64,000 bases of DNA from a virus. Its lineage: Duplodnaviria; Caudoviricetes. Both the position numbers and the translations under genes were made by a program. The stretch covers positions 32,001 through 96,000 of IMG/VR virus record IMGVR_UViG_3300033463_000032; one strand, given 5' to 3'. Positions 9,557-19,062 of this stretch are shown here, piece after piece. Under the pieces are notes generated by a model that was given only the letters and a program-made list of their open reading frames with translations, searched no databases and was not told where the DNA came from. Position 1 is the first letter of the stretch. Each line of letters opens with the position of its first letter.

Positions 9557-9922
9557 ATGAATGATAACATATTAGAAATAAAACGTGGTACAACACCTAC
9601 CATTACAATGAATATGCCGGAAGAAATACCTCTTGTTGAAGTAGTTGATATCTGGGTATCTATTAGTCAAATCACTAGAACATCAGTTCCGGTAATTAAC
9701 AAGACAATGAATGATTGTACCATTGATTATGATAATAAAATAATTTCAGTTCTATTATCACAGGAAGATACTCTTAGACTTCTTCCTACACAGAATACCG
9801 GAGTACAATATAATCTTTCTACTTATATTGAGATCAGTCTTAAGTTTAGTGATGGTAGTAGAGCAACATCAAATAAACAGTTAATAACTGTATTAGATAA
9901 TGTAAAGGAAGGGGTAATGTAA
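9557..9922 (+). CDS. BppU N-terminal-like virion protein
   Basis: IKRGTTPTIT...VLLSQEDTLRL...DGSRATS pattern typical of this beta-sandwich family. Confidence 0.55.
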   Translation: MNDNILEIKRGTTPTITMNMPEEIPLVEVVDIWVSISQITRTSVPVINKTMNDCTIDYDNKIISVLLSQEDTLRLLPTQNTGVQYNLSTYIEISLKFSDGSRATSNKQLITVLDNVKEGVM

Positions 9923-9923
9923 T

Positions 9924-10418
9924 ATGCCAGATATAAATTTCACTCCTAAGTTTGATACAAAAATAGAAGTTACCACTAGTGGTGAAGGTGCTATTAAATC
10001 AATAAGTCTTAATGGTAAACCAATTCCTCCAGATGAAAATGGTAATGTTGATCTGGGTCTTTTCTACACTATTCATGGAACCTATGAGGGAAGCATATAT
10101 AGGAATACCTCTGGTAATATAGGAATATCTGAGACAGTAGAAGAGTCAGCAGAAGATGTCTTTAAAGCATTAGAAGATGGAAAGATCCTTTATTTTGATT
10201 TACTTCATGATGAATCTGGTAAGGCTATTACTACCAGATTTTCTTGCAGTATGCATACTCATGGTATATTCAGTGATGATGGTGTGGATTATTGTGCAGA
10301 TGGAATAATTTTTAATGGGAAGGAAGGATGTTTAGTTACACTATCTGTTTGGATTCTTAGATCTCTTGAAGGAGAATTTATAGAATTTAATACCAGTATT
10401 AGTGTTAAAGAAATTTAA
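9924..10418 (+). CDS. putative virion fibre/appendage protein
   Basis: IKSISLNGKPIPPDENGNVDL resembles the SVNG..PD..GNV fibre motif. Confidence 0.45.
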   Translation: MPDINFTPKFDTKIEVTTSGEGAIKSISLNGKPIPPDENGNVDLGLFYTIHGTYEGSIYRNTSGNIGISETVEESAEDVFKALEDGKILYFDLLHDESGKAITTRFSCSMHTHGIFSDDGVDYCADGIIFNGKEGCLVTLSVWILRSLEGEFIEFNTSISVKEI

Positions 10419-10624
10419 AATAACTTTCTATTTGTATATATTTATATCCATCAATGAATTGTGTCTTTACAATAAAAACAAATATATTTAAAATAAAAGA
10501 GAATTAGATGTATATCAATATGTCCGATTCTAATTTAACCATTCCTAAAAAGTATTATCACAGATTGATATAAGATCCTGTGGTAATACTTTAAAACTAT
10601 GTAATTAAATAACATAGAGGTGAA

Positions 10625-11776
10625 TTGATAGTGAATACCTATGGATATGTCTATATGACAACCAATTTAATAAATGGTAAAAGATATATAGGACAACATG
10701 CATATTCAGTATTTAATGAAAACTATAAAGGATCTGGAACTTATTTAACTAATGCTATAAAAAAGTATGGTGTTGAAAATTTTAAAACAGAACTTATAGA
10801 ATGGTGTGAAACACAAGAAAAGTTAGATGAAAGAGAAAGATATTGGATTGCATATTATAATGCAGTAGAATCTGATGATTTTTATAATCTTGCTACTGGT
10901 GGTATTAATGGCAATCCTAGAAAGGGTACTAAATTTTCTTTAGAAGCAAGAAAGAAAATGTCTAGTAGGGTTTCTGGTGCTGGTAATCCTATGTATGGTA
11001 AAAATCATACTGAGAACTCCAGGAAAAAGATTTCTGAAAATCATGCTAACTTTAAAGGTGAACATTCACCTAGTTATAATAGAATTGCTATTAATGATGG
11101 TATAAAGATTAAATATGTGCGATCAGAAGATTTAGAAAGATATCTTTCTAAAGGCTGGATAATAGGTATTACAGAGGAAAGAAAACAAATACAATCTAAA
11201 TCATTTAAAGGAAGGAAACACACAGAAGATTATAAAAAGAAACAGTCAGAACGTATGTCTGGTAAAAATAATCCTATGTATGGAAGAAAAGCTTCAAAAG
11301 AAACTAAAAGTCTTATGACACAGCAAAGACTTGGAAGAAGATGGATTAACAATGGTAAAGAAAATAAATTTGTTAAACCAGATGATTTGGAATCTTTATT
11401 AAATGAAGGTTGGGTTTTAGGAAAACTAGTAAACCTTAGTACAGAAATTCGAAAGAAACAAGGAGAAAGTGGTAAAGGAAAAGTTTGGATTAATAATGGA
11501 GCAGAAACCATCAGAATTATGCCAGAATTTTTAGAATCTTATTTTTTAGATGGGTGGGTGTTAGGTCTTTCTGAAAGCTATAAGAATAAGATTTCTGTTT
11601 CACGATTAGGCAAAAAACAATCACTTGATCAAATTAAGGCTAGATCTAAAACTTTTAAAGGTAGAATTTGGATAAATAATGGAATAGAAAATAAATGGGT
11701 ACAACCTATGGAACTAGAAAATTATTTGTCTAATGGTTATGTTAAAGGTAAACTAGTAAAAGGCAAAGCATCATAA
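10625..11776 (+). CDS. free-standing GIY-YIG homing endonuclease with NUMOD3 and WINNG repeats (start probably GTG 10631)
   Basis: YGYVY...KRYIGQH, YKGSG, FYNL; NPMYGK-type repeats; repeated WINNG..K.V.P..LE.YL..GW units. Confidence 0.9.
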   Translation: MIVNTYGYVYMTTNLINGKRYIGQHAYSVFNENYKGSGTYLTNAIKKYGVENFKTELIEWCETQEKLDERERYWIAYYNAVESDDFYNLATGGINGNPRKGTKFSLEARKKMSSRVSGAGNPMYGKNHTENSRKKISENHANFKGEHSPSYNRIAINDGIKIKYVRSEDLERYLSKGWIIGITEERKQIQSKSFKGRKHTEDYKKKQSERMSGKNNPMYGRKASKETKSLMTQQRLGRRWINNGKENKFVKPDDLESLLNEGWVLGKLVNLSTEIRKKQGESGKGKVWINNGAETIRIMPEFLESYFLDGWVLGLSESYKNKISVSRLGKKQSLDQIKARSKTFKGRIWINNGIENKWVQPMELENYLSNGYVKGKLVKGKAS

Positions 11777-11792
11777 TAAAGAAGGTGTTATT

Positions 11793-13361
11793 TTGAGTAT
11801 ATTATTAACAGAAAAAGTAGGTTGTCTTGAAAATGCTGGTTCTCCAATGAATCCTAATTGTTTAGGCCATCTTGCAGGAATTGGAGGAGACTTAAGAAAA
11901 CCTACTAGAAATGGTAGATTATACAATCAAGAACTTTGGGAAAAGGTAATGGCTTCTGATGATTTCAAGGAAATGATGGAATCCAAAACTTGTTTCTGCG
12001 AAGCTAATCATCCAACTGACCGTATTGATACGGACATTCGGGAAGTGTGTGCAGTTCTTACTAATATGGAAATTAGAAAGGATGAGGGAATTCTTTGGGT
12101 AGAGTTTGATATTCTTGATACACCACAAGGAAGAATTCTTAAATCTCTTGTAGACTATGGTTGTAAGATTGGAGTTTCTTCCAGAGGACTTGGTGATGAA
12201 ATTCAAAGAAATGGTGAAATAATCATAGATCCTGATACATATAGTTATTATGGTCATGATATGGTAGTACAACCGGCAGTTAAATCAGCAAGACCGGATG
12301 TAGTTGAATCAAAGGCCAGAGCAAAGGTAACAGATGTATTTAGGAAAGAAATAGAAAATGCTACAACTCAATCTGAATTAGTAGGATTGAAGAGATTAGC
12401 AGAATCGGTAAATGTACCAAATCTGGATTTAATAACTGAATCCATTGATAATAAACTTTCTAGTGGTTCTTTAAGTGGAAATAATATTTCTGAACACTTA
12501 GAAGATGATTTGGGTAGACTTGCAGAAGAGAATGAACAACTCAAAACTCAGGTTGAAAATCTTAAAAAGGCTAATAATATTGGTGCTAAGAGAAGTAAGC
12601 AATTAACTGAGACATTTGAAAGTGAAGCTAAAACTGCAAGAAGAACATTGAGAAAACTTGAAGTTCAAACAGAAAGATTAGAAAGAACTAATCAGGATTT
12701 GAATGACGAGTTGGATCAGAAGAACATTCAGTTAGAAAGGCTTGAAAGAGTTAATAAAAGAAAAACTGAATCATTAGAGCAACAACTTGAAGATGCATTG
12801 AAAAAGATTTCTTCTCTTGAAAGAAAAGTCAAATCACTTAATGAAAGTTATGATGCTGTTATTAGTGAGAATGATGATCTTAAAGATGAGATCACAAGGT
12901 TATCTGAATCTTGTGATAGGAGTAATTCAAGGGTTATTGAATTGGAGAATGAAATTTCAAATAAATCTAATGAGTTGAATTCTCTTTATGAAGAGAATGA
13001 TCTGCTTAATGGTGAGTTTGAAAAAGTTAATTCAAAACAAGCATTAACTGAAAACAAAGTACAAGATGTATCTAATGAACTTAATGAATCAAAGAAGCAA
13101 ATTTCTGAGGTTCTTGTTAAGTATCTTGATGCTAAATGCGTGTCAGAAGGAATTGACAGGAATAGAGCATCATCAATGTTGAATGGTAGATATACTACTA
13201 AAGACATTGATATGGTGGTAGAAAAGTTGGCAGATGAAAAGAAGAGGTTGAATAAACTTCCTATTGCTCTTAATGGTAGTATTTCTGCTAAACTTGAATC
13301 CTATTCCGGTTTAAACCCGGAAGATGCTCAAACAATGAAATTCCTTACTGGTTTTAAATAA
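11793..13361 (+). CDS. prohead protease (T4 gp21-like) fused to a long coiled-coil scaffold
   Basis: NGRLY, EANHP, LDTPQG, GVSSRGLG motifs; about 300 aa coiled-coil C-terminus; immediately upstream of the capsid gene. Confidence 0.9.
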   Translation: MSILLTEKVGCLENAGSPMNPNCLGHLAGIGGDLRKPTRNGRLYNQELWEKVMASDDFKEMMESKTCFCEANHPTDRIDTDIREVCAVLTNMEIRKDEGILWVEFDILDTPQGRILKSLVDYGCKIGVSSRGLGDEIQRNGEIIIDPDTYSYYGHDMVVQPAVKSARPDVVESKARAKVTDVFRKEIENATTQSELVGLKRLAESVNVPNLDLITESIDNKLSSGSLSGNNISEHLEDDLGRLAEENEQLKTQVENLKKANNIGAKRSKQLTETFESEAKTARRTLRKLEVQTERLERTNQDLNDELDQKNIQLERLERVNKRKTESLEQQLEDALKKISSLERKVKSLNESYDAVISENDDLKDEITRLSESCDRSNSRVIELENEISNKSNELNSLYEENDLLNGEFEKVNSKQALTENKVQDVSNELNESKKQISEVLVKYLDAKCVSEGIDRNRASSMLNGRYTTKDIDMVVEKLADEKKRLNKLPIALNGSISAKLESYSGLNPEDAQTMKFLTGFK

Positions 13362-13388
13362 TATAAAATTTGAAAGGAATTAATTACT

Positions 13389-16300
13389 ATGGCTATCGCA
13401 AGTATGATGAATCAAAAGTCACAGTACCTCATTGGTAAGTATGCCAAGAGGATTAAGATGGTAGAGAGTGTTCAGGGTAAGCCTCTCTCCTATGAAAAGA
13501 AAGTAGTTCTTGCTAACTGCTTAGAGAATACAGCAGATCGTATTAAGGCATTTGAAGCTACTAACCCTGGTCAGATCGGTAAACAACTTGCCGCATAATA
13601 TGGTAACATATTATGGAAAACCTAGTGAATTGCTGGAAACTCCTAATATTTAATATCTCGGTGTTAGGACAATCAGCAGCTTTATATCAATAATAAGGTA
13701 GGACAGTAGGTTCGAAACTATTTCTTACTACCCTTAATGGTAAGATTACTACCTCATTATATAGATTAAATCTTTAAGGGAGATTTAAGATATGTATGGA
13801 TATATTTATTTAATAACCAATAAAGTAAATGGTAAAAAGTACATAGGACAAAGAACAGCGGATTTTAAAACTGATTCTAAATACTTAGGATCTGGAACTC
13901 TTATTAAGAAAGCAGTTGCTAAGTATGGTACAGAAAGTTTTAATAAAGAACTTCTTGAAGAATGTAATTCAAAAGAAGAATTAGATGATAAAGAAAAGTT
14001 CTGGATTTTAAAATTTAATGCTATAGAAGATGAATCATTTTATAATCTTGCAAATGGAGCTAATGGTTCTACTAAAGGTTCTAAAAGATCAGAAGAAACT
14101 AAACGTAAGCAATCTGAGAAAGCAAAACTTAGAAGTATAGATGAAGATACTAGAAAGAAAATATCTAAGACAATATCTTCACAATGTTGGGTTAATGATG
14201 GTCATATAGAAACTAAGGCAACAAAAGAAACATTAGATGAATACTTAAATAAAGGATTTGTTTTAGGTAGATTACCATTTAGTGAAGATACTAAACATAA
14301 CATGAGTGTTTCATTTACCAGAAGAACTCATACAGAAGAAACTAAGCAACATATAAGTAAAATTACTTCTGGTGATCATAATCCTTTTTATGGTAAGAAA
14401 CATTCTGAAATTAGTAAAAAGAAAATGTCTGAAAGAGCTAAAGGTAGAAAAGCATCTACACAGACAAAACAAATACTATCAAGTCAAAGACTTGGAAGAA
14501 AATGGATTAACAATGGTAAAGAAAATAAATTTGTTAAACCAGATGATTTAGAAAAGTATTTACTTGATGGTTGGTTATTAGGAATATATCATTGATATGA
14601 AGTTCAACGACTATCGAAAGCATAATGTAAGAGAAAGACTTACATGAAGAAGCGAGTAGAGTAAGGTTCAAGTGAACTCAAGTGCTAGGGTTCTTAATAA
14701 TGGTAACAGTTATTAAGAATGTGATATAGTCTGAACTCTATAGTAATATAGAGAAAATAAACGGAAACGGTTTATTTGTAACATAATTGCAGTATAAGAG
14801 ATATGCATTGGACTTAGTTACGGCTACATTGCCGAATCTTATTGCATTTGATCTTTATGCAGTACAGCCTATGGATAATAGGATCGGTAAACAATCTGCC
14901 GCTTAAGTTAGTGATAACTTAAGAAAACTCGGTGAAAACAGGGGAAACCTTATATTTGAGGTAAGATATAAGACAATCCTGTGCGAAGTCTTACAATTAA
15001 ATATTACTTATTACTTTATGATATAATCTAAGGTAATAAGGTAGGACAGTAGGTTCGAAACTATTTCTTACTACCTCTTATTTAGTGAGATTACTACCTT
15101 GTTAAATATAAACTTAATCTTAAGAGGAGATTAAAAGTATGTATGGTTATATTTATATGACTACTGATATTACCAATAATAAAAAATATATTGGTAAGCA
15201 CAAAGCTAGTGAATTTACTACTAAGTATGTAGGTTCTGGAAAGTGTCTATTAAGAGCAATAAAACAACACGGAAAAGAAAATTTTAAAGTTGTTATGTTA
15301 GAAGCTTGTAATACTTTAGAAGAACTTAATGAAAAGGAAAAATTCTATATTGCTAAATATGATGCATTGAACTCTAAAGATTTTTATAATATACACCCTG
15401 GCGGTGATGGTGGTGACATTGCATTGTATTTATCAAAATCTAAACTGACTCATATAAGAAAAGAACATTCTAAATATATTTTAGATAGACTTAAAACTGA
15501 TGAGGAATTTCATAGTAGATTTGCTGGTGCTAAGAAAGGTCACAAGTGTTATCAAGGCACTAAGGACAAAATAGGTTCTGCTCAAAAGAATTATTGGAGC
15601 AGAACACCGTATGAAATTAAACATGAAAGACTTTCTAGGAGTGCAACTACTAGATGTACTGGTAGAATCTGGATAACTAATGAAGTTATTGATAAATTTA
15701 TAAAACCAGAACATTTAGATGAGTTTTTAGCAGTAGGCTTTAGAATAGGTAGGAAGTTTCAAAAACGTAATAGACCTTGTAAGAAACGTTAAACGACTAT
15801 CGAAAACACTATCAATGAGAAAGACATTGAATAGGAAGTGAGTAGAGTACATTCTAAGTAGAATGGAAGTGCCGAGCATCTTATTAGTGGTAAAAGTTAA
15901 TAAGATGATGATATAGTCTGAACTCTATGGTGACATAGAGAGTTATATTGGAAACGAATATAACGTAACATAAATTGATGATCAATTACCTTGATTACAC
16001 ATACCAGTCAAATAAGGGTGATGTAGTAAATGGTCAGGTATTTAATGGAGCTCTTAAGGGTTCTTTCTCTGATAAGGATTACACATCTGCATTTGTAAAT
16101 GGTGAGAAGTTTGTAGGTGATGGTTCTAACAAGGTATTTAATCTTGCTTGGACACCGGTTGACACAAGAGTAACAACCCAGATTGGTGAGTCTGTTCTTC
16201 CGATCATTACAGTTGGTGGATCTCCGGTTACTGTAGAGATTGATAATGGCCAGACAAATCCTGGTGCATTAGTATCTGCTAGTGGTGTAGTTACATTTGA

Positions 16301-19062
16301 TACTGCTCCGAGCAATAATGCAGAAGTAGTTGTTAAGTATTGGTTCTTGAATGAAGATGTAAGATCTAATGGTTTTGGTGCATTTGGTGGTCCTAACAAT
16401 GGCAATCAGGCTATTGACGGAGCTAGAGGTGCTGCTGGATTTACAAATGTTCCGGAAATGGGCCTTAAGATGCAGACAGTACCTGTAGAGGCTAAGGCTA
16501 GAACACTTAGAGCATATTGGGCCTTTGATGCTCAGTATGAGCTTTCTAAGGAATATGGCCAGTCTATTGAGGATCTGTTAGCTACACAGGCTTCTGGTGA
16601 AATTGCCCATAGACGTTTTGTGGCATAATATATAAATAAGGTTAATAGTGTGATAGAATAAAAAAAAGAAACAAAACATTCAACATTTTAAATTTGATTG
16701 TTTTGTGGGACAGTAGGTTCGAAACTATTTCTACATTCCTTAACAATGTAGATTACCACAATTCAAATATAAAAATTAGTTAAGGTGATTTTTATGGCAA
16801 AGAAAAATTCTAAATGTTACACAGATGGAAAACAAAACATCTATATAAGTGAAGGGATGGAAATACCGGAAGGTTTTTATAAAGGCTTTGCTTATAAATC
16901 AGAAAGTACATTAAAGAATAGGGTTCAAAAAACTGCTAAGACAAAATTAGACCGTTATGGATCTGAAACTTATAATAATTCTGAAAAGAGTAAGCAAACG
17001 TGTTTAACCAGATATGGTACAGAAAATCCTTTAAAGTCTGAACAAATAAAAGATAAGATCAGACAAACAAACTTAGATAGATATGGTGTTGAAAATCCAT
17101 TTCAAAACAAAGAAGTTAAAACCAAAGTAAAGCAAACATTGTTAGAAAAGTATGGTGTTGAAAACATAGCACAAACAGAAAGTCACAAACAAAAGGTAAG
17201 TGATTTCTGGAAAAACATTTCTGAGGATCGTTTGGTTGAAATTTCTGATAAGAAAAGAAAAACTTGTTTAGAAAAATATGGTAAACAATCTGTAGGGCAA
17301 GTACCGGAGTTCCGGGAAAAGATAGAAAAGACTTGCATAGAAAGATATGGTGTACCGACATATTTAATGACAGAAGAAGTCAGATTAACAACATCTAATG
17401 ATTCTGGTCCTAATCAAGATTTTGAAAACAAACTTAAAGAAGTTGGTTTAGCTTTTAGCAGAGAATATCATATTGATAGAAAGAGTTATGATTTTCTTTG
17501 TAGTGATACATTAATAGAGATCAATCCATATGCAACACATAATTCAACATGGGGCATATTTGGTAGAGATCCTTTAGATAAGAGATATCATTACGAAAAA
17601 ACAAGACTTGCAAAAAGAAATGGATTTAGATGTATAAATATTTGGGACTGGGATGATAAAGATAAAGTATTATCTTTGATAACACCTAAATCAAAAATAT
17701 ATGCCAGAAAGTGTAAGATTTTAGAAATATCTTCTGAGGCCAGTAAAGATTATCTTAACACCTGGCATTTACAAGGTAATGTTAATTCTGATATTAGGGT
17801 TGCATTAATCTATGAAGATCAAATAGTATCATTAATGACATTTGGTAAGAGTAGATACAATAAAAAGTATCAATATGAATTGTTACGTTATTGTTCAAGT
17901 AAATGTGTAATTGGTGGATCAGAAAAACTTTTTAAGTATTTTTTGAAAACCTATAAGCCGGAAAGTATTATAAGTTATTGTGATCTTTCTAAGTTTACAG
18001 GAACTGTATATGGTAAGTTAGGATTTACTTACAAAACTTATACAATAGGTAAGCATTGGTATAATCCTAAAACACAAACACATATTACAGATAACTTATT
18101 AAGGCAAAGAGGTTTTGATCAACTGCTAGGAAAAACTTATGGATGTTTTGGAAAAGGAACAAGTAATGAACAGTTAATGCTACAACATGGTTTCGTTGAA
18201 ATTTATGATTGTGGTCAAGCTACATATACTTGGAGCATTAAATAACCTTATGAAATTATTATGAAAACCTCGTTAATTGCTGGAAACTCTTAAAGACTTA
18301 TCACCTTTAAGACAATCAGCAACTATATATCGATTATGATATGTAGCTCAGAGACTATCGAAAGCATAATGTAAGAGAAAGACTTACATGAAGAAGCGAG
18401 TAGAGTAAGGTTCAAGTGAACTTGAAATGCGAGGGTTCTTATTAATGGTAACAGTTAATGAGAACGTGATATAGTCCGATCTTTATGGTGACATAAAGAA
18501 TTATGATGGAAACGATCATAATGTAACATAAATGGAAATTGATAATGAGCTTACAATCGATCTTCTTACGACCGCTATTGGCAATACAAATCCTGAGCTT
18601 TATATGAGATCTTGGTCTAAGGTACAGCCTACGGGTGTATCTCTTGCAGATCACTATGATGGTTTCATTGAGAAGATCATTGATTGTTCTAATGCTATTA
18701 ACGCAGCAACAAGAAAAGTATCTGCAAACTTTATGGTATGTGGACTTGGAGTTGCTACTGTTGTTAAGGTAATGAGAACATTCCAGGCTTCTGGTAACAT
18801 TGCAAATGGTCCTTACTATCTTGGAACTCTTGGTGATATCAAGGTTTATGTAAACCCTGATTATCCGGCAGATTATTTTGTAATGGGTTATAAGGGTACT
18901 AACATGTTTGATGCTGGTGCTTTCTATCTCCCTTATATGCCTGTAACATCAACAGATACGATCATGACTGCTGATTTCCGTGGTGAGAAGGCTTGGGCAA
19001 CAATGTATGCTAAGAAGATTCTCAATAAGGATATGTATGTTGCTGGTCAGATTACTAAGTAA
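13389..19062 (+). CDS. major capsid protein (T4 gp23-like), spliced join(13389..13580,14790..14888,15978..16610,18535..19062), 483 aa
   Basis: Exons join in frame: ...NPGQIG|QYKRYALDLVTATLPNLIAFDLYAVQPMDNRIG|MINYLDYTY...ASGEIAH|EIDNELT...; PNLIAFD..VQPM, VEAKARTLRA, EIxxEI and GYKG...DAGAFYLPY are gp23 hallmarks. Confidence 0.92.
13690..13791 (+). ncRNA. three-way-junction / kissing-loop RNA element upstream of intron HEG, copy 1
   Basis: Invariant GGACAGTAGGTTCGAAACTATTTCT (13701-13725); loop CCCTTAA (13731-13737) complementary to RBS-hairpin loop TTAAGGG (13774-13780). Confidence 0.8.
13792..14595 (+). CDS. intron-encoded GIY-YIG homing endonuclease (NUMOD3)
   Basis: YGYIY...KKYIGQR, YLGSG, FYNL; NPFYGKKHSE. 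Confidence 0.9.
   Translation: MYGYIYLITNKVNGKKYIGQRTADFKTDSKYLGSGTLIKKAVAKYGTESFNKELLEECNSKEELDDKEKFWILKFNAIEDESFYNLANGANGSTKGSKRSEETKRKQSEKAKLRSIDEDTRKKISKTISSQCWVNDGHIETKATKETLDEYLNKGFVLGRLPFSEDTKHNMSVSFTRRTHTEETKQHISKITSGDHNPFYGKKHSEISKKKMSERAKGRKASTQTKQILSSQRLGRKWINNGKENKFVKPDDLEKYLLDGWLLGIYH
15019..15027 (+). promoter_or_regulatory. extended -10 promoter (TGaTATAAT) for the intron-2 HEG
   Basis: TGnTATAAT 7-8 nt upstream of the RNA element. Confidence 0.5.
15035..15138 (+). ncRNA. three-way-junction / kissing-loop RNA element, copy 2
   Basis: Invariant core 15044-15068; loop CCTCTTA (15074-15080) complementary to TAAGAGG (15121-15127). Confidence 0.8.
15139..15792 (+). CDS. intron-encoded GIY-YIG homing endonuclease
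   Basis: YGYIY...KKYIGKH, YVGSG, FYNI. Confidence 0.9.
   Translation: MYGYIYMTTDITNNKKYIGKHKASEFTTKYVGSGKCLLRAIKQHGKENFKVVMLEACNTLEELNEKEKFYIAKYDALNSKDFYNIHPGGDGGDIALYLSKSKLTHIRKEHSKYILDRLKTDEEFHSRFAGAKKGHKCYQGTKDKIGSAQKNYWSRTPYEIKHERLSRSATTRCTGRIWITNEVIDKFIKPEHLDEFLAVGFRIGRKFQKRNRPCKKR
16631..16659 (+). promoter_or_regulatory. internal promoter TATAAA-17-(TGa)TAGAAT for the intron-3 HEG
   Basis: Same hexamers and spacing as the minus-strand promoter at 58528-58583. Confidence 0.5.
16703..16793 (+). ncRNA. three-way-junction / kissing-loop RNA element, copy 3
   Basis: Invariant core 16708-16732; loop CCTTAAC (16738-16744) complementary to GTTAAGG (16779-16785). Confidence 0.8.
16794..18245 (+). 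CDS. intron-encoded Hef/Vsr-like (PD-(D/E)xK) endonuclease with N-terminal T-x-L-x-(R/K)YG repeats and a C-terminal GNAT-like domain
   Basis: Six TxLx(R/K)YG-type repeats; YDF...IEINP..H; IYARKC...HLQG...ELLRYC...SYCDL. Confidence 0.7.
   Translation: MAKKNSKCYTDGKQNIYISEGMEIPEGFYKGFAYKSESTLKNRVQKTAKTKLDRYGSETYNNSEKSKQTCLTRYGTENPLKSEQIKDKIRQTNLDRYGVENPFQNKEVKTKVKQTLLEKYGVENIAQTESHKQKVSDFWKNISEDRLVEISDKKRKTCLEKYGKQSVGQVPEFREKIEKTCIERYGVPTYLMTEEVRLTTSNDSGPNQDFENKLKEVGLAFSREYHIDRKSYDFLCSDTLIEINPYATHNSTWGIFGRDPLDKRYHYEKTRLAKRNGFRCINIWDWDDKDKVLSLITPKSKIYARKCKILEISSEASKDYLNTWHLQGNVNSDIRVALIYEDQIVSLMTFGKSRYNKKYQYELLRYCSSKCVIGGSEKLFKYFLKTYKPESIISYCDLSKFTGTVYGKLGFTYKTYTIGKHWYNPKTQTHITDNLLRQRGFDQLLGKTYGCFGKGTSNEQLMLQHGFVEIYDCGQATYTWSIK

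Follow-up and report, generated by a model that had tools for sequence, protein, structure and literature searches.

The major capsid locus

The sequence analysed here, referred to below as the window, is a stretch of 64,000 nucleotides of DNA from an uncultured, T4-like phage, corresponding to bases 32001-96000 of the 128,410-bp IMG/VR record IMGVR_UViG_3300033463_000032. The source genome carries direct terminal repeats and is rated as 100% complete. Within the window the major capsid locus occupies positions 13389-19062 of the plus strand, the strand on which all the window features described below are found, and is composed of four short Gp23-family frames with three larger homing endonuclease open reading frames (ORFs) between them. 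We conclude that the four frames are very probably exons of one capsid gene that is interrupted by three group I introns.

Exon 1 (13389-13580) contributes 64 codons, colinear with homologues, and ends ...CAG ATC GGT, leaving a U at position -1. Exon 2 (14790-14888) is only 99 nt long: its 33 codons, ending ...ATC GGT, encode QYKRYALDLVTATLPNLIAFDLYAVQPMDNRIG, which includes the PNLIAFD..VQPM motif, and lie inside a 39-amino acid (aa) ORF (14787-14906) that is shorter than the normal ORF length cut-off. Exon 3 (15978-16610; 211 codons, ending ...GCC CAT) has a lineage-specific insertion domain inside it, while exon 4 (18535-19062) supplies the final 175 codons and the stop. When joined, the four exons give an open frame of 483 codons specifying a Gp23-family capsid protein of 483 aa. 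The remaining 4222 of the 5674 nt of the locus (74%) are intron.

The joined protein aligns from end to end with the annotated, uninterrupted capsid proteins of Listeria phage LIS04, Bacillus phage vB_BceM-HSE3 and Streptococcus phage vB_SagM-GXN1, and is 66%, 60% and 53% identical, respectively, to those of the metagenomic relatives L008, L009 and L010, which are likewise uninterrupted. In alignments with uninterrupted capsid proteins not a single gap falls at any of the three junctions, and the flanking sequences (TNPGQIG|QYKRYAL, PMDNRIG|MINYLDY and SGEIAH|EIDNELT) are among the best conserved stretches of the protein. Since it matches both the family and annotated capsid proteins colinearly over its full length, the product belongs with the Gp23-type capsids (Pfam PF07068). 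Considered individually, the exon 4 frame (18532-19062) matches PF07068 over profile positions 184-352 (6e-28) and the exon 3 frame (15975-16628) over profile positions 123-184 (3e-6); that the two meet at position 184 fits a gene cut at that point. The exon-2 ORF matches at positions 3-35 (4e-5), its 23.7 bits lying just under the cut-off of 24.4. A megablast search of the capsid locus against GenBank phages gave no match.

Intron boundaries and ribozyme cores

Intron 1 (13581-14789; 1209 nt) ends ...ATAATTG, its terminal G being nucleotide 14789. Positions 13590-13593 form its guide sequence, GCCG, which pairs with CGGU of the exon, and the ribozyme is divided into a 5' domain, P2-P6, at 13594-13696 and a 3' domain, P6'-P9.1, at 14586-14779. 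Intron 2 (14889-15977; 1089 nt) ends ...AAATTG with its terminal G at 15977, and is similarly built from a 5' domain at 14889-14997 and a 3' domain at 15776-15977; its guide GCCG (14898-14901) again pairs as CGGU/GCCG. Intron 3 (16611-18534; 1924 nt), ending ...AAATG with the terminal G at 18534, has the P1 guide sequence GUGGC at 16620-16624 and a contiguous core at 18243-18534. In all three cases, therefore, the 5' exon ends in U and the intron in G, both of them characteristics of group I introns. Also in each case, the exon frame runs into TAA at the sixth codon of the intron (13596-13598, 14904-14906 and 16626-16628). Inteins were considered as an explanation for the inserts and are ruled out by these in-frame stops.

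With permissive filters, Rfam gave a match to RF00028 at 18213-18498 in intron 3 that scored 51.9 bits against a cut-off of 50. The whole genome contains only three RF00028 matches, all of them in the capsid gene. Intron 3 alone scores as a whole intron because its P3-P9.1 core follows the ORF without interruption. Covariation was assessed in a set made up of the three window introns, minus their ORFs, and two more that belong to the same family but come from the distant phage L011. The consensus fold of these five sequences comprises P3, P4, P5, P6, P7.1, P7.2, P8, P9 and P9.1. Compensatory changes were seen at 4 of 6 pairs in P3, 4 of 6 in P4, 5 of 10 in P5, 6 of 7 in P7.1, 5 of 6 in P7.2, 7 of 12 in P8 and 8 of 9 in P9.1, although these counts do not represent independent events since the set contains paralogues; P7, by comparison, is invariant (GACUAU/AUAGUC). 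A conserved core is thus found throughout, above the cut-off in intron 3 and, in introns 1 and 2, as a full set of helices that covary in the ORF-less alignment. The two covarying hairpins between P7 and P3', namely P7.1 and P7.2, assign the introns to the type (IA-type) that T4 and other phages of Firmicutes carry.

In addition to the paralogy of the covariation set, several observations weigh against the interpretation of the inserts as functional group I introns. P1 is only 4 bp long (CGGU/GCCG) in introns 1 and 2, whereas in intron 3, where it is GCC(C)AU/GUGGC, the register is ambiguous and a bulged C is needed. P10 is weak or absent, intron 3 having an adjacent 5-bp candidate. A default Rfam scan of the whole window produced no match, yet this is a filter effect, the E-value mode having found the match above cut-off. 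Introns 1 and 2 yield only partial RF00028 matches, below the cut-off at 25.1 and 36.6 bits, respectively, their low scores being due to the ORFs that split their cores. The assignment of the inserts as three paralogous group I introns having complete P3-P9.1 cores is well supported at the sequence level.

Homing endonuclease ORFs

Each intron carries an endonuclease ORF. In intron 1 this encodes a 267-aa GIY-YIG + NUMOD3 homing endonuclease (13792-14595) and is located in the P6 loop, with its stop codon in the 3' strand of P6. The intron 2 ORF (15139-15792; 217 aa) encodes a GIY-YIG homing endonuclease and also occupies the P6 loop, its stop codon lying within the 3' strand of the closing stem. 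The stems closing these ORF loops have 15 pairs (-15.4 kcal/mol) in intron 1 and 11 pairs (-9.7 kcal/mol) in intron 2, and the two enzymes share 31% identity. The intron 3 ORF is of a different kind, being a DUF7487-type homing endonuclease (16794-18245; 483 aa from the ATG at 16794, the ORF opening with a GTG at 16785) that matches PF24308 (7e-28) and phrog_3339, annotated 'homing endonuclease' (1e-81). It is housed in the P2 loop and is enclosed by a long P2 stem formed by 16624-16650 with 18236-18263 (-17.5 kcal/mol). A sequence search with this ORF (486 aa) against solved structures found no match.

A fourth endonuclease ORF, again GIY-YIG + NUMOD3, is free-standing (10625-11776), just 5' of the prohead protease/scaffold gene (Peptidase_S77; 11793-13361) that itself precedes the capsid gene. 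It shares 42% identity with the intron 1 enzyme. The three GIY-YIG ORFs all have matches to PF01541 and PF19835, and phrog_314, also annotated 'homing endonuclease', matches at 1e-32 to 1e-48, NUMOD3 being a feature of the intron 1 and free-standing enzymes. They thus group with the I-TevI/Seg-like GIY-YIG homing endonucleases, whose mark is a GIY-(10-11 aa)-YIG catalytic domain at the N-terminus followed by a DNA-binding tail of NUMOD type. We considered whether the ORF at 10625 might be borne by a further intron; this was ruled out, there being no RF00028 match around it and no copy of the three-way-junction RNA described below. Its start is probably the GTG at 10631, around 8 nt after GAGGTGA, and not the TTG at 10625 or the ATG at 10655, the last being disfavoured since its use would drop the GIY motif.

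The four ORFs lie within a 7.6-kb span (10625-18245). Genome-wide the count is five, made up of four GIY-YIG genes and a single DUF7487 gene; all but one are in the head module, and one or two weak HNH-type matches lie elsewhere, so that the head module may fairly be called a homing endonuclease 'hotspot'. An earlier note on this DNA had used the same description, on the basis of four such genes within 8 kb, and had read the capsid gene as split by three endonuclease-containing group I introns. Both statements hold, the first by the gene counts just given and the second through the RF00028 matches, the covarying cores and the endonuclease families. Its exon and intron coordinates, along with intron lengths making up about three quarters of the locus, proved exact on direct reading of the sequence and by gap-free alignment with homologues, and the 99-nt exon that it reported as missed by ORF calling is the one contained in the 39-aa ORF.

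A three-way-junction RNA before each intron endonuclease ORF

Upstream of each intron ORF lies a predicted three-way-junction RNA, at 13696-13754 in intron 1, 15036-15102 in intron 2 and 16703-16761 in intron 3. It is composed of a closing stem, an invariant hairpin whose loop is 8 nt long, a second hairpin, here named C, that varies, and the string GAUUAC; a 25-nt core, GGACAGTAGGTTCGAAACTATTTCT, is the same in each of the three introns and is absent from the rest of the window. Single-sequence folding reproduces the three-way junction. No Rfam family matches this RNA. In the window and in other contigs (L011-L034) it lies before GIY-YIG, DUF7487-type and HNH ORFs, and thus before endonucleases of at least three families, at no fewer than 16 distinct loci. 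In ten examples, from the window and other contigs, 95.9% of cells are paired as against 76% in shuffles, and the covariation score is 0.58 as against 0.18, with none of 500 shuffles as good. The element travels with the ORF, whether the latter is in P6 or in P2.

Hairpin C carries a loop with complementarity to 6-7 nt at the ribosome-binding site of the next ORF, and changes in loop and site go hand in hand: CCCUUAA faces UUAAGGG in intron 1, CCUCUUA faces UAAGAGG in intron 2 and CCUUAAC faces GUUAAGG in intron 3. Over 16 distinct examples the loop-to-site match has a mean of 6.6 nt within a locus compared to 4.1 nt across loci (permutation p<1e-4). The junction RNA most likely silences translation of the endonuclease from the precursor RNA. 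The near-invariance of the 25-nt core suggests a specific partner, either a protein or a tertiary contact, beyond simple masking of the site.

An A/T-rich, TATA-like box recurs in the stretch that separates the junction RNA from the ribosome-binding site. A late promoter of the T4 type (TATAAATA) was considered at this position, after the precedent of the T4 intron ORFs, and is not supported: copies in the window number 4 on the plus strand and 9 on the minus strand, and TATAAAT is found within 70 nt 5' of none of the listed plus-strand ORFs (at least 90 aa, ATG start).

Two further observations on the element come from other contigs. At L034:555-700 (minus strand) the junction RNA and an ORF are positioned just past the end of the capsid gene, outside any recognisable intron; junction RNAs may also serve free-standing endonuclease genes. 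Contigs L024 and L027 share at least 110 nt of identical sequence that covers the junction RNA and the beginning of a GIY-YIG ORF. The L027 cassette is at capsid site 1, the site of intron 1, while in L024 the N-terminus of the capsid protein is unbroken through residue 87 and the cassette is further downstream. From these sequences it seems that the same endonuclease cassette occupies different sites in different phages.

Origin of the introns and alternative explanations

The closest complete relative is G004, a genome of 127,491 bp with terminal repeats that holds L008. It has no RF00028 match, its protease and capsid genes are adjacent, and its syntenic 16.5-kb locus is free of endonuclease genes, with no homologue of any of the four. 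Intron-less alleles with near-identical flanks are present in L008-L010. The three introns are thus insertions relative to their kin.

The interpretation that we consider very probable is that this capsid gene is cut by three P7.1/P7.2 group I introns and that its pre-mRNA is spliced three times to allow synthesis of the 483-aa capsid protein. The short P1 of each intron would present the last U of the exon in a U-G pair, and the P3-P9.1 core would fold around a large ORF-bearing loop at P6 (introns 1 and 2) or at P2 (intron 3). A ribosome translating the upstream exon would stop at the TAA at intron codon 6. Pairing of the junction loop with the ribosome-binding site of the ORF would leave the nuclease untranslated in the precursor and the ribozyme free to fold. 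The endonucleases, for their part, would cut intron-less capsid alleles of co-infecting relatives, into which the introns would then be copied.

Were there no splicing, the inserts would be inactive and the capsid would either be made as separate polypeptides that assemble, or the genome would be defective. The short P1 helices are compatible with this and there is precedent for endonuclease insertions that do not splice, NrdA of phage Aeh1, split by mobE, being so described where PMC7344957 cites the Aeh1 work. However, all the core helices are intact in the three introns, with compensatory changes, and the exons are free of frameshifts and stops, their identity to intact homologues (53-66%) extending throughout. 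Exons 2, 3 and 4, when read directly, have no ribosome-binding sites of their own, and it is hard to see the 33-residue product of exon 2, containing the most conserved capsid motif, being made and assembled alone. We consider a locus without splicing very improbable. Still less credible, to the point that it can be practically dismissed, is an assembly artefact or chimera in which the inserts derive from mis-joined reads: the genome is indeed a metagenome assembly, but all the inserts restore the frame exactly and carry complete ribozymes, the genome is complete with its terminal repeats, and similar architectures recur in independent assemblies.

Accepting that the gene is cut by three introns that splice, the alternatives for their arrival are spread or conversion within the gene and independent gain from three donor phages by ordinary homing. 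The latter would account for the differences between endonucleases, with 31% identity for the GIY-YIG pair and another family altogether in intron 3, and site 1 is also occupied in a small contig (L027), where the intron is placed exactly after ...ATCGGT; site 1 is therefore a recurrent target. On the other hand, when P7-P9.1 is compared among 18 sampled introns, each window intron is nearest to another window intron (84%, 75% and 70% identity), introns from outside reaching no more than 76%. Introns 1 and 3 have an 86-nt block with 95% identity, all three introns agree at 72-76% over their last 110 nt, and the 25-nt junction core is common to them all. Introns 1 and 2 furthermore share seven bases of 5' exon (GATCGGT), the first six bases of the intron and the guide GCCG, which is the trace that guide-directed spread, or gene conversion between copies, would be expected to leave. 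A tree built from the 3' domains gives weak support of 0.63 and 0.23 for a clade of window introns only, the approximately 186 nt available being too short to separate spread within the gene from independent gain. The differing endonucleases argue for at least some independent history, but gain of all three introns in this way appears rather unlikely, and spread within the gene is, although unproven, the likelier course. By analogy with phage Twort, it is possible that the guide shared by introns 1 and 2 permits in-frame skipping of exon 2.

Automated gene calling turns the gene into four capsid fragments and loses the 33-codon exon with the most conserved motif; taxonomy based on the capsid, like prediction of its structure, would therefore fail for this phage group unless splicing is modelled. 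If the most abundant protein of the virion depends on three ribozyme reactions, then splicing has to proceed quickly and efficiently at late times of infection. The combination of paralogous introns, differing endonucleases and ORF positions, and close relatives free of introns constitutes a compact natural system, suited to the study of the spread of introns to new sites, the exchange of endonuclease cassettes and the ways in which translation of the endonuclease is prevented from interfering with ribozyme folding.

Comparison with known systems

The T4 introns of td, nrdB and nrdD (sunY), with I-TevI, I-TevII and I-TevIII, resemble those described here in being of the P7.1/P7.2 type, in having an in-frame stop soon after the 5' splice site, in looping out the ORF from a peripheral helix (P6 in td), and in encoding a GIY-YIG enzyme with NUMOD-type DNA-binding modules. 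Gott et al., in 1988, are said to have found the ribosome-binding site of a T4 intron endonuclease to be occluded by RNA structure. The occluding structure in T4 is a simple hairpin, whereas here it would be a conserved three-way junction with a loop-to-ribosome-site contact. The host genes differ, belonging to nucleotide metabolism in T4 while the present one is a late structural gene, as does the occurrence here of three paralogous introns within one gene. A T4-type late promoter box was not found in the window.

Group I introns in phages lie mostly in genes of DNA metabolism (PMC3706429), as the earlier note had stated. Its further remark, that three splicing events in a capsid gene would be unusual, is appropriate for cultured phages and not in general. 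Capsid genes holding several group I introns are known from crAss-like gut phages (Delta and Zeta groups), with one Zeta capsid gene in five fragments (Yutin 2021, PMC7886860), and multiple introns are found too in contigs with the same intron family as the window. The crAss-like examples involve a crAss-type capsid and introns recognised through endonuclease domains; in the window, the capsid is of the Gp23 (T4) type and both ribozyme and junctions have been mapped. Genes of four exons with three group I introns, for which splicing was shown by experiment, include orf142 of Staphylococcus phage Twort (Landthaler & Shub 1999, as cited in PMC6669764) and the tape-measure gene of Vibrio phage ICP1 (PMC10448857). 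These are different host genes and, further, an endonuclease gene is usually present only in the middle intron (ICP1), as opposed to all three here.

Single introns in capsid genes have been described in mycobacteriophage LittleE, where splicing was demonstrated, and in lactococcal phage Tuc2009 (PMC3706429). The capsid gene of Bacillus phage SP-15, whose product, at 47.5% identity over exon 4, ranks with the nearest homologues from cultured phages, is annotated as a join, and its insert has a weak RF00028 match of 38 bits. What SP-15, LittleE and Tuc2009 have in common with the window is a major capsid gene that holds a group I intron bearing an endonuclease ORF, but each has one such intron and not three. 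In SP-15 the insertion follows ...FDAA, about 25 codons 5' of site 3 of the window, and the ORF specifies a different type of nuclease (Phage_endo_I). At the other extreme, Jug phages have a mean of 18.5 introns per genome, with splicing backed by metatranscriptome data (PMC12880540). The phenomenon is thus a known one, of which the capsid gene of the window is a clear and fully resolved case from the middle of the range.

The same intron family in other contigs

Among public contigs searched with the junction motif, the intron family of the window is present in the Gp23-type capsid genes of many phages, apparently with up to nine copies per gene. Contigs L034 and L029 have several introns each. 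At L011:10809-13660, in a phage whose capsid protein is only some 22% identical, two introns of the family interrupt the same N-terminal region and are separated by an exon of just 25 nt (12376-12400). The GIY-YIG ORF in the second of these is broken by in-frame TGA codons where W would fit; either this ORF is decaying or it comes from a genome that reads TGA as W.

The most elaborate case is L035, a 12.9-kb contig (G001:C40, CAYZUH010000040.1) from a Marinilabiliaceae metagenome-assembled genome bin, in which 11 matches to RF00028 exceed the cut-off. The capsid gene of this contig (L035:1826-10900), of Gp23 type, apparently has at least 10 exons and nine group I introns, the boundaries having been read by eye and not all mapped. 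Two of the capsid introns carry endonuclease ORFs, of 582 and 542 aa, and the shortest exons, again with boundaries by eye, are of around 10-20 nt, one for example encoding PTLIAP.

We tentatively propose, as an idea that could well turn out to be wrong, that a single intron lineage has specialised in the Gp23-type capsid genes of gut and rumen phages. It would multiply within the gene, reaching new sites through its short guide by reverse splicing (introns 1 and 2 sharing GAUCGGU|...GCCG), and would swap endonuclease cassettes, each with the same junction RNA, until, in some phages, genes of at least nine introns with exons of around 10-20 nt arose. The endonucleases might at the same time be weapons against intron-less co-infecting relatives.

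One further feature of L035 is seen past the capsid stop, at 9850-10900, where a second, diverged copy of C-terminal pieces of the protein is encoded (...PIVPTQLLGHADGSI, then ...SQGFSTLYDLKILNKDLIVKGLVRA) and is itself interrupted by two further group I introns. This second copy could be a leftover of homing or co-conversion, or else an alternative 3' end.

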